From NCBI GenBank assembly GCA_963726255.1, contig CAVSBL010000002.1, positions 224,001-288,000 of the forward strand: a DNA stretch of 64,000 nucleotides, written 5' to 3'. Made by a program: the position numbers and the translations under genes. The notes under the pieces were generated by a model. It did not search any database and was not told where the DNA came from. It was given only the letters and a program-made list of their open reading frames with translations. Below are positions 1,972-52,827 of the stretch, in pieces (position 1 is the stretch's first letter; each line of letters opens with the position of its first letter). This stretch comes from Candidatus Bathyarchaeota archaeon. GTDB taxonomy: Archaea > Thermoproteota > Bathyarchaeia > 40CM-2-53-6.

Positions 1972-2100
1972 TGGAGTCGGCAGCGGTCCGGGGCTCGCAT
2001 GGCCTTTCGGAACATACTACTACCCGAATCGCCTGAGAGATTCACTTCCGTGTTCGGAATGGGAACGGGTCCTAGCCCTCAGCTATGGCCGCCAACTCCA
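1972..2100 (-). rRNA. rrf: 5S rRNA, not linked to 16S/23S
   Basis: Reverse strand reads GGAGUUGGCGGCCAUAGC...CCCGUUCCCAUUCCGAACACGGAAGUGAA...GCUGCCGACUCC; terminal helix pairs; loop C CCGAAC present; TTTATTTA box about 22 nt upstream. Confidence 0.95.
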
Positions 2101-19200: not shown

Positions 19201-19217
19201 TGGTGGGGCCGAAGGGA
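19201..19217 (-). repeat. att-like copy of tRNA-Trp 3' end (outer island boundary)
   Basis: 17/17 identical to 42772-42788. Confidence 0.9.
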
Positions 19218-25488: not shown

Positions 25489-25505
25489 TGGTGGGGCCGA
25501 AGGGA
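25489..25505 (-). repeat. att-like copy of tRNA-Trp 3' end (internal boundary)
   Basis: 17/17 identical; followed by CACTGCG-TATA-CGAAGTG imperfect palindrome. Confidence 0.9.
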
Positions 25506-39133: not shown

Positions 39134-39176
39134 TTCGAACCCTTGAAAAGCAGGGTTCGAATCCCTTCGACCCCAC
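39134..39176 (+). repeat. Inverted, intron-free tRNA 3'-half copy within a palindrome
   Basis: TTCGAACCCT-N8-AGGGTTCGAA followed by TCCCTTCGACCCCAC. Confidence 0.75.
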
Positions 39177-39267
39177 GAATCAGTGTGTTTGTAGTCTTCC
39201 TGTGGGAAACCTAACTAGAAAAAATGTCCAAAATAAGGCGGGGATTCGATTCTTCGAGAAATCGGTT

Positions 39268-41463: not shown

Positions 41464-41655
41464 ATGGTTTGTGTCTTGGCTGAAGAGAAGGATTTAGTCA
41501 GCTTTGACCTGTTGAAGACTTGGGCGAAGGCGCACCTGCGGGAGGATAGCAAGTTGCGGGCGATGATTCTTGATGAGCGTGAGAATTCCCCTCGGCAGGA
41601 GATGATTGTGAAGCTTGACATGTACAACCGTATGCTTTCCCGGGAGAAGCGTTAG
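41464..41655 (+). CDS. Hypothetical small protein convergent with the integrase
   Basis: 63 aa with helical, charged composition. Confidence 0.6.
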   Translation: MVCVLAEEKDLVSFDLLKTWAKAHLREDSKLRAMILDERENSPRQEMIVKLDMYNRMLSREKR

Positions 41656-42692
41656 AGTGGTGATCGAATGACTGCTTGGTCGTTCGGAAGTTGGGTTACG
41701 TACTCCCAGCCCTCAGTGATTGCTTCCGCGACCTGACTCATTGGTATGATTTTCTGTCGGTTCTTGCCGTTCAGGCCGAAGAAGCTGGCTGCCTTTTGGT
41801 GGAGTAGGTCTCTGAATTGGTCGTTGGTGAGTTTGCCGAGGTCTATTTTCTGGCGTTCTTCTTCGGTGAATCCAAGCATCTCAAGCATTGTCTCCCGCAT
41901 GCTGCTTCGCACCCTTTCTGGAGTTTCTGGCCTTTTGCCGAGGGTTGTTAGGTGGGCTTCGTCCAGTCTCTCGTAAGCTTTCCTTAACCTGTCCAGGTCT
42001 TCGTTGAGGAGGCTACGGTACTCGTAGCGGCTTTTGCTGATGGTCGCTCGGCAAGTTACGAAGGTTGGGATGGCATTGAACTCGACGGTGCCGTTTGCGA
42101 TTTTCATTTCGGGAAAGTCGCTGATTTTGAGGCCGTCAACGCCGGTAAGGTCGCCGAGGGTCTGATCTCTGAACCCTGAAAACGCCATGAGGCTGATGGC
42201 GACTTTTTGCCTGATATCTGCAGCATCGAGGATTCTGCGGAGTTCCTCGTTCGTGGGGGGCTTTTCTTGGGCGTAGAGTCCTGTTTCGGGGGCCACTTTG
42301 TACTCGACTTCGACGTGCTTCCGGTTGTGTTTGAACCAGCTTTTCGCGGTCTTGAAGAGGTTGCTGATGTAGCTGCTCCGTTTGCCGTTGTCTTCGAGGA
42401 GGCTGATCATGTCCTCAGTCCAATCCTCCGCCTTCCGCTTGCTTAACCTGGCTAGTTCCTTCGGGCTGGTGTCGAAGTGTTCACAGAGCCAGCCGAGTCT
42501 GCTGAGGTTCTTTCCTGCTGACGCGGGGCTGCGCCGGAGGAGCTTCCGGAACCACCGTTGAACGTTCGGATCGTCGAGGAGGTCCTTGTATTTGGACTTC
42601 TGCATGAAGGTGGGTTTGACGCGGAGGGATGGTGCGCGGGGCGGAAGCTTCAGCGCCTTCTTAACCGGCGGCTTTGCCTGATCTGGAGTCAT
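41652..42692 (-). pseudogene. Tyrosine integrase with in-frame internal deletion
   Basis: Core-binding domain, MAFSGFR...GLKISDFPE first catalytic Arg and ISK Lys; no HxxR/H/Y region after SLLNE; adjacent to tRNA 3' end. Confidence 0.8.
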
Positions 42693-42771
42693 TAGGCACC
42701 CTCCCCACTGCCTACCGGGACTGTTCTGTGGGTTCTGGATGTTAATTTTGCTAAGACCCACTGCGTGAACG

Positions 42772-43000
42772 TGGTGGGGCCGAAGGGATTCTCATGGTTC
42801 TGGGGTGAACCATTTTGAACCCTCGACTTCCGCCATGCCGTCATGTCTACGGGTTTCTTCGCTCCTGAAGTTCGTCATTCCGTTCAGGTCCGCAAACCCG
42901 TTAAGGTTTGGTCTTCTGGAGCCCTTGGCGGGAACGTGTCCCTGTCGTCATCCCTGGCTAGAGTCCGTCACTCCCACGTGGTCACTGTGTCTACGGCCCC
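42772..43000 (-). tRNA. tRNA-Trp(CCA) with five introns (10/11, 28/29, 37/38, 45/46, 59/60)
   Basis: Spliced product GGGGCCGUAGUCUAGCCAGGGAUGACGACGGGCUCCAGACCCGUAGGUCGAGGGUUCAAAUCCCUUCGGCCCCACCA is a 77-nt cloverleaf; anticodon at 42917-42919. Confidence 0.88.
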
Positions 43001-43133
43001 ACATCGGAACCGACAGGGCGGCCCCAGCCCAGTCAGCATAGGTAGTTGCTATATGGATTTTGGCTACTTTCAGCCGATACGCGTAGCCCGTCAAGTAGTA
43101 ATACTGCTATGCAGGAACTCTGGCTGAAGGTTC

Positions 43134-52702: not shown

Positions 52703-52827
52703 TGGCGCCGGGAGAGGGATTCGAACCCCCGAGGCCCGCAAGGGCCACAGGCTTGCGTTGAATCGTTCACTCAAGGCCTGCGCCTCTAGATCGAGTTCTC
52801 ACTGTTAATCCGCTCGGCCATCCCGGC
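52703..52827 (-). tRNA. tRNA-Ser(TGA) with two introns (21/22 at 52786-52805; 37/38 at 52754-52769)
   Basis: GCCGGGA/UCCCGGC acceptor, G73, long variable arm, encoded CCA; splices to 89 nt. Confidence 0.88.

Follow-up and report, generated by a model that had tools for sequence, protein, structure and literature searches.

Archaeal tRNA genes are described in the accessible text of the tRNAscan-SE 2.0 paper as carrying up to three introns, while a 2026 preprint on Asgard archaea reports, in its available portion, up to five intervening sequences per tRNA gene (10.64898/2026.10.13.758758). The expectation of the initial annotation of the DNA studied here, that multi-intron archaeal tRNA genes usually go up to three introns, thus agrees with the former source and has been outdated by the latter. 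In Haloferax, the tRNA-Trp intron guides 2'-O-methylation at positions 34 and 39, according to the accessible sections of two papers (PMC4090602, PMC7714728). The locus described here, very probably a real and functional tRNA-Trp gene with five introns, lies in a 64,000-nt stretch of a Bathyarchaeia genome (hereafter the window), and its intron number is at the known maximum, not beyond it. Bathyarchaeia are among the most abundant archaea in sediments, and our literature search found no paper on tRNA introns in this group.

Architecture of the locus and its spliced product

The locus occupies positions 42772 to 43000 on the minus strand of the window and comprises, over 229 nt, six exons and five introns, with the CCA terminus encoded. 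Joined by their coordinates, the exons (10 + 19 + 9 + 8 + 14 + 17 nt) form a 77-nt cloverleaf, which ARAGORN calls as tRNA-Trp(cca) spanning nucleotides 1-77. The product has an acceptor stem of 7 bp, D, anticodon and T arms of normal form, discriminator A and the encoded CCA. These exons, all on the minus strand, are exon 1 (42991-43000; tRNA positions 1-10), exon 2 (42944-42962; positions 11-28, D arm), a 19-mer in a tRNA whose D-loop has one extra nucleotide, exon 3 (42916-42924; positions 29-37, with the anticodon CCA), exon 4 (42847-42854; positions 38-45), exon 5 (42814-42827; positions 46-59) and exon 6 (42772-42788; positions 60-76, including CCA). In Sprinzl numbering, the introns, likewise on the minus strand, interrupt the D arm at 10/11 (intron 1, 42963-42990, 28 nt) and 28/29 (intron 2, 42925-42943, 19 nt), the anticodon loop at 37/38 (intron 3, 42855-42915, 61 nt), the variable region at 45/46 (intron 4, 42828-42846, 19 nt) and the T loop at 59/60 (intron 5, 42789-42813, 25 nt), and together make up 152 of the 229 nt, two thirds of the gene. 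The coordinates, the intron positions, this proportion and the helix sequences given below had all been put forward in the initial annotation and were correct on recomputation; its claim that the locus yields a 77-nt tRNA-Trp once five segments are removed is upheld by the acceptance of the product by ARAGORN.

Two boundaries can be moved without consequence: that at 37/38 slides to 38/39 with an identical product, both flanks being A, and that at 59/60 can be placed anywhere from 57/58 to 59/60 with the product unchanged. Since the six exons are colinear inside 229 nt, this is not a split or permuted tRNA gene. Acceptance of a spliced product by ARAGORN is in itself weak evidence, as an intron enumerator (see below) yielded rival accepted products elsewhere. 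Because in-silico splicing alone gives several rival tRNAs per locus, the case for the gene rests on comparison with relatives and on RNA.

Detection by standard tools and uniqueness in the genome

Left unspliced, the locus gave no tRNA with ARAGORN, with or without intron mode, and no Rfam match at either the gathering or a permissive threshold. At the permissive threshold, no tRNA or small-RNA family was matched between 42500 and 43300, and the Trp locus is absent from the matches of a whole-genome search with RF00005. The prediction that standard annotation would miss the gene therefore holds for ARAGORN and Rfam RF00005. A second tRNA-Trp gene, for which the initial annotation had advised looking, was found neither among the 17 Rfam matches and 35 ARAGORN -i matches of the whole genome, which is 98.5% complete, nor by an exon-wise genome search, which replaced an 11-mer scan judged too noisy. 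In the exon-wise search, the D-arm 19-mer occurs a single time in the genome at up to 2 mismatches, and all six exons come together at the Trp locus only, other places holding at most four of the six.

A SPLITS-like intron enumerator, combining acceptor, T-arm and CCA seeds with bulge-helix-bulge segments and ARAGORN, was tried and rejected in both of its settings: with the intron mode of ARAGORN on, real exons were absorbed into large false introns, and without it, competing products with differing anticodons arose at most loci, several at each, and the Trp locus itself was missed. Because the enumerator is ambiguous, no genome-wide intron count is given. Across the whole genome, 43 acceptor/T-arm/CCA seeds with a partner acceptor strand were found; the partner lies within 90 nt in 2 of the 43, many of them have a shortest span of 130-204 nt, and 14 of the 43 carry a T-loop insert. 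Rfam counts 17 tRNAs in this 98.5%-complete genome. Judged by these seeds, nearly all tRNA genes of the genome look interrupted. The Trp gene illustrates how tRNAs are undercounted by ordinary finders in these genomes, and the tRNA counts used for grading such genomes are accordingly too low. A second interrupted tRNA gene of the window lies at 52703-52827 on the minus strand (C2:276703-276827; seed span 125 nt); ARAGORN -i calls it as Thr(cgt) with a 44-nt intron, and it does not appear in the Rfam RF00005 list. The window also holds a lone 5S rRNA gene at 1975-2096 (minus strand; Rfam, 83.4 bits).

Conservation of the exons and turnover of the introns

When the locus was searched at the DNA level against 40 relatives, it was found in 18 of the 22 other genomes of the genus (E < 1e-50), the four genomes without such a match being 67-83% complete, and also in other families of the order. 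The genus set retained for comparison comprised 16 full-length loci from 15 genomes, six more loci cut by contig ends having been dropped. All six exons are letter-identical in the 16 loci, exons 1, 3, 4, 5 and 6 no less than the D-arm 19-mer, while introns 1 to 5 occur in 15, 9, 9, 2 and 12 distinct sequences, respectively, and four of the five introns vary in length. In other families of the order, the exons lie 0 to 3 letters from those of the window and the introns drift.

For the class as a whole, the mature sequence of the window was used as the template for spliced alignment to 47 distinct Trp loci, one truncated locus having been dropped. In this alignment, which is blind to introns shorter than 10 nt and less reliable where loci are most distant (6-9 mismatches), five introns were counted in 31 loci, four in 12 and three in 4, and no case of more than five was seen among the 47. 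Single introns are cleanly absent from some relatives: intron 1 from L021, L024, L028 and L029, intron 2 from L184 and L185, intron 4 from L030 and intron 5 from L031. Because the exons are contiguous where relatives are without an intron, the boundaries are fixed independently of any motif. The same five-intron architecture was recovered in L041, the informative outcome of a loose pattern scan of genome contigs that matched at least 120 stretches, nearly all of them ordinary tRNAs. L041 comes from an uncultured member of the Bathyarchaeia and shows 100% identity across 2328 nt to L160, whose genome (G119) belongs to the order of the window's own, which puts the host in the Bathyarchaeia; an ammonia-oxidising thaumarchaeon had been considered as host and was dropped.

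In some lineages, an intron in the D-loop (after linear position 19, or at 16/17) replaces the one at 10/11, and in others an intron at about 43/44 replaces that at 45/46; the loci concerned are L023, L026, L027 and L171 from other families of the order and L180-L186 from other orders. Intron sites thus appear, from these alignments, to turn over within the class while 37/38 stays. The possession of five introns is an old, stably inherited condition and does not reflect a recent burst.

Splice motifs, compensatory changes and predicted folds

At the fixed boundaries, every junction presents a 4-bp helix, strict or relaxed, flanked by 3-nt bulges, and this pattern is kept in relatives; removal of the introns so delimited restores the canonical 77-nt cloverleaf accepted by ARAGORN. 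All four pairs form in intron 1 (CCGU/ACGG, four Watson-Crick pairs), intron 4 (CCGU/GCGG) and intron 5 (UUCA/UGAG), the latter two with one G.U pair each, and three of the four in intron 2 (GACG/CGCC, with an A.C mismatch) and intron 3 (the relaxed motif CUCC/GAAG, with a C34.A mismatch). Our motif check agrees here with the initial annotation, which had described three fully paired junctions and two with one mismatch, all with 3-nt bulges. The mismatch of intron 2 becomes an A-U pair in L024, L028 and L029, and that of intron 3 is universal in the relatives. Intron 3 moreover has no inner helix, and because of this and of the mismatch it depends on the anticodon stem. Among the others, intron 1 has a covarying inner helix, intron 4 the inner helix CAUG/CAUG, and intron 5 joins the T stem and its central helix to a 6-bp inner helix.

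Covariation was assessed on an alignment (A1) of 23 sequences and 42 pairs from the five motifs. The expected partners are paired in 89.6% of the cells, as against 36-49% after a slide of the partners by 1-3 columns, and 14 pairs have changed on both sides. None of 500 shuffles reaches any of five measures, a test that is inflated by the relatedness of the sequences, whereas the slide control is unaffected by it. The double-sided changes in the inner helices involve 3 of 3 pairs in intron 1, 4 of 4 in intron 2, 2 of 4 in intron 4 and 5 of 6 in intron 5.

The local minimum-energy fold is the splice motif itself for introns 1 and 4; in the case of introns 2, 3 and 5, the motif comes to within 0.4-4 kcal/mol of that minimum. 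In the minimum-energy fold of the whole precursor, the acceptor stem and the intron 4 motif form and the intron 1 motif does not; in the centroid fold, exon 4 pairs with a stretch of intron 3 (guide 1, described below). The fold energy of the precursor is modestly lower than that of shuffled sequences (z = -1.82). Positions 5-8, 23-26 and 40-43, which the acceptor, D and anticodon stems need, respectively, are taken up by the central helices of introns 1, 2 and 4, and intron 5 alone sits in a motif compatible with the cloverleaf.

The locus in RNA libraries

The organism is uncultured. Metagenomes from sediment, peat, wetland and soil contain the stretch, as do, to a small extent, six RNA libraries. 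In four RNA runs (X15 to X18), the contigs are assemblies that could contain DNA, and those of X15, X16 and X18 differ from the window by 3-8 letters, so that they represent relatives and not this strain. In X18, a 165-nt contig with a depth of 563 runs from 43002, 2 nt before tRNA position 1, to 42838, inside intron 4; introns 1 to 3 are present in it and the flanks are uncovered. X15 yielded a 249-nt contig spanning 42772-43004, and X17 no contig matching the locus. In X16, a 90-nt contig places its first 30 letters on 42882-42854 and its next 60 on 42914-42854, that is, a 60-nt cycle plus a 30-letter overlap, with closure exactly at the predicted ends of intron 3 and an equal fit to 37/38 and 38/39. 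A de Bruijn assembler working with 31-mers turns a circle into just such a cycle plus a 30-letter overlap. We infer that intron 3 is excised and circularised in a close relative.

Contigs of joined exons were found in none of the four runs, the exon pieces of 8-19 nt being too short to place. Since libraries of this kind rarely capture mature tRNA, their absence is not evidence against splicing. Introns 1, 2, 4 and 5 are too short for detection in the RNA contigs, and these four introns are presumably removed in vivo.

Sequences flanking the gene

A copy of the 5' strand of the acceptor stem lies in the leader at 43019-43025 (minus strand), about 19 nt upstream of the acceptor strand of the gene itself, and a TATA-like ATATAG, which may act as the promoter, is found at 43049-43054, about 26 nt upstream of this copy. 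The leader copy is present in all 19 aligned loci with intron 1 and in none of the 4 without it, the related genomes not being independent. In the genus, the copy is followed by CCCUGUC (43012-43018, minus strand), a complement of the exon 2/intron 2 junction.

Downstream, exact copies of the 17-nt exon 6 occur at 25489-25505 and 19201-19217 (both minus strand) and bracket stretches of 17.3 kb and 6.3 kb, which resemble, by their layout, tandem integrated elements with exon 6 as the attachment core. The larger of them encodes a STAND NTPase and an AbiEii-like protein. An ORF of 369 aa (41652-42761, minus strand) starts 11 nt after the tRNA and is a weak integrase candidate: it matches phrog_1 (E 4e-4) and has protein-atlas look-alikes with integrase domains at 0.93, with nothing usable in Pfam or PDB, and a search of the genome with the integrase family PF00589 gave no match. 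Copies of the 3' end also occur in this manner for other tRNA genes of the genome. The putative island further contains, on the plus strand and so opposite to the gene (39162-39178), a degenerate piece resembling a tRNA 3' half, made up of a T arm and an exon-6-like 17-mer with 2 mismatches.

Alternative readings of the locus

Two other readings were weighed against that of a functional gene with five introns. The gene might be real and its processing different, either through a shifted boundary or through a sixth excised segment marked by the leader copy, in which case the upstream copy would supply the mature 5' end; this we hold to be highly unlikely. Two junctions do slide, and the circular contig fits 37/38 as well as 38/39, but the slid boundaries give the same mature tRNA and leave the intron count unaffected. 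As for a further segment, the 7-nt acceptor copy some 19 nt upstream tracks intron 1 (19/19 loci with it, 0/4 without), and the GGCC contained in both acceptor copies would allow a helix of 4 bp flanked by 3-nt bulges; splicing at this helix, however, would replace the conserved U of position 8 by C or A, and the X18 and X15 contigs begin 2-7 nt before position 1, short of the leader copy. A sixth intron between the two acceptor copies was rejected.

We give next to no credence to the other reading, that we are dealing with a tRNA-like relic, decaying or without function, and that Trp is decoded by an unfound gene. The spliced RNA was not seen in the four RNA runs, in which the exon pieces are too short to place, the genome is 98.5% rather than 100% complete, and an interrupted Trp gene of different sequence could escape the search, multi-intron genes being hard to find. 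A relic is nevertheless out of keeping with exons that are invariant in 16/16 genus loci and 0-3 letters off in other families while the introns drift, with splice helices maintained by compensatory changes, or with an RNA contig depth of 563 at the locus; and a replacement gene is not apparent in a genome where the D-arm exon occurs nowhere else and no other locus assembles more than four of the six exons. The functional five-intron gene is the reading retained in what follows.

Guide-like elements in the intron at 37/38

The conservation of intron 3 extends well outside the order: in other orders, the DNA search matches exon 3, intron 3 and exon 4 alone. From its 5' side, on the minus strand, it carries guide 1 (42894-42901), complementary to the last two intron bases and positions 38-43; a D'-like box, CGGA (42889-42892; CNGA in relatives); a C'-like box, AUGACGA (42872-42878; AUGA-N-GA in relatives); guide 2 (42861-42870), which, apart from an A.A mismatch at 36, is the complement of positions 31-37 and of the first three intron bases; and a D-like box, AAGA (42856-42859; NNGA in relatives, CUGA in L017), 12 nt after the C' box. 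In other orders, the mismatched site of guide 2 is U, which makes the duplex perfect. The intron thus shows the internal C'/D' arrangement of box C/D guide RNAs, whose guides are about 12 nt long, and has a C' to D spacer of 12 nt. In box C/D-guided 2'-O-methylation, the target is given by the fifth paired position upstream of the box. Here, C39 is the partner of the fifth guide base upstream of the D'-like box in all 44 scorable loci, and C34 that of the fifth guide base upstream of the D-like box in 31 of 46, the spacing to C34 being off by one (one extra base) in the remaining 15. The D' box reads CGGA in 24 of the 44 loci, CUGA in 13, CCGA in 4 and CAGA in 3, and the D box reads CUGA in just 1 of the 31 loci that follow the spacing rule. 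No convincing or conserved C box (RUGAUGA) was found near the 5' end of intron 3. Because of this, and because the D box is degenerate (NNGA), intron 3 is labelled box C/D-like only and is not filed as a member of the box C/D family.

On these pairings, intron 3 would guide the methylations Cm34 and Cm39. A possible alternative, though in our view a doubtful one, is that its conserved blocks are not methylation guides and are kept for the shape of the precursor in splicing or in 5'/3' processing. Cis pairing between the guides and exons 3 and 4 suits such a role, as do the missing canonical C box, the degenerate D box, the C34 spacing that is off by one in 15/46 loci and the lack of an Rfam match for the guide elements of intron 3. 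It accounts less readily for a spacing rule satisfied at C39 in every scorable locus (44/44) and at C34 in most (31/46) with a standard 12-nt spacer, or for the conservation of the AUGA-N-GA box; the targets are, furthermore, the two positions guided by the Haloferax tRNA-Trp intron, as given in the accessible parts of PMC4090602 and PMC7714728, a fibrillarin gene is present, and intron 3 survives as a circle in RNA.

Splicing machinery and a proposed order of maturation

The initial annotation had anticipated a splicing endonuclease of broad specificity, and the genome offers a suitable one: it encodes two EndA paralogs (ORFs of 188 and 187 aa), each with both EndA domains above the Pfam cut-offs. 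The best matches of the 188-aa protein are catalytic alpha subunits from the heterotetrameric enzymes of Aeropyrum, Sulfolobus and Pyrobaculum (E 8e-41 to 4e-28), its nearest PDB chain being 3p1z_B, the alpha subunit of Aeropyrum pernix. Residues K44 and R46 of the A. pernix specificity loop have K41 and K43 as their aligned counterparts in this protein. In the available text of PMC3241643, it is the loop with K44 and R46 that gives the Aeropyrum enzyme its broad specificity. The more distant 187-aa protein is probably the structural subunit. Along with this EndA suited to non-canonical sites, the genome encodes the ligase RtcB and, as mentioned, fibrillarin.

In the maturation that we propose, transcription would give a precursor of about 229 nt plus the leader, with five bulge-helix-bulge introns; an endonuclease of the heterotetramer type, composed of the two EndA paralogs and equipped with the crenarchaeal-type specificity loop, would cut within the 3-nt bulges, and RtcB would join the exons and circularise the introns. 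Since the acceptor, D and anticodon stems have to share nucleotides with the helices of introns 1, 2 and 4, the precursor must switch folds, and the cloverleaf would form only once these three introns have been removed. Because intron 3 needs the anticodon stem, it would hardly be recognised while the helix of intron 4 occupies positions 40-43. Ordered splicing, which the initial annotation had mentioned, is plausible and, on this model, likely. Positions 40-43 would then pair in turn with intron 4 (splicing), with guide 1 (methylation of C39) and with positions 27-31 (anticodon stem); the leader copy may hold the 3' acceptor strand while positions 5-8 sit in the intron 1 helix; and the circular 37/38 intron would subsequently serve as a stable guide of the box C/D type that lacks a C box. 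The joint reading, in which a forced order of refolding, an acceptor held by the leader and a circular intron 3 acting as a C-box-less guide all apply, is offered very tentatively and is, as a whole, rather unlikely. If true, the gene would offer a natural model of multi-intron tRNA splicing that is ordered and gated by structure. The competing pairings and the guide-bearing circular intron offer a tractable case for following the order of splicing and the sharing of one precursor between guide and splice motif.

Comparison with known systems

The comparisons below refer to the accessible parts of the sources cited. Thermoproteales such as Pyrobaculum calidifontis likewise have short bulge-helix-bulge introns at non-canonical sites, several per gene, which are cut by a heterotetrameric EndA with the crenarchaeal specificity loop (tRNAscan-SE 2.0 paper; PMC3241643). 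They differ from the present case in that the maximum given for them in this literature is three introns per gene, compared with five here, in that the host here belongs to the Bathyarchaeia of cold sediments and soils, and in that the intron set here, unlike theirs, is conserved across many families and was not recently gained. Asgard archaea resemble it in having most of their tRNA genes interrupted, many in the D arm, and in that standard tools miss many of these interrupted genes (10.64898/2026.10.13.758758, 10.1101/2023.11.21.568159). Asgard archaea, however, form another phylum, and their counts come from a computational census, whereas there is RNA evidence for one intron here; unlike that census, the present tRNA-Trp has five intron positions shared by 31 of 47 loci.

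The tRNA-Trp of Haloferax volcanii and other Euryarchaeota also has a long intron at 37/38 with guides to positions 34 and 39 (PMC4090602), and in Haloferax the excised intron likewise persists as a circle (PMC7714728). Compared with Haloferax, the boxes here are degenerate, a C box was not found, position 39 is C and not U, and there are four further introns, of which that at 45/46 competes with guide 1 for exon bases. The red alga Cyanidioschyzon merolae, which has ectopic and multiple tRNA introns, up to three per tRNA gene (PMC9602550), differs in that its genes belong to a eukaryotic nuclear genome. Against these systems, what is new here is the lineage, the conservation of an identical set of five sites throughout the order, the evidence from RNA that one intron is excised, and the overlap between splice motif and guide pairing. 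With the Bathyarchaeia, tRNA interruption reaches five introns in a third archaeal lineage.
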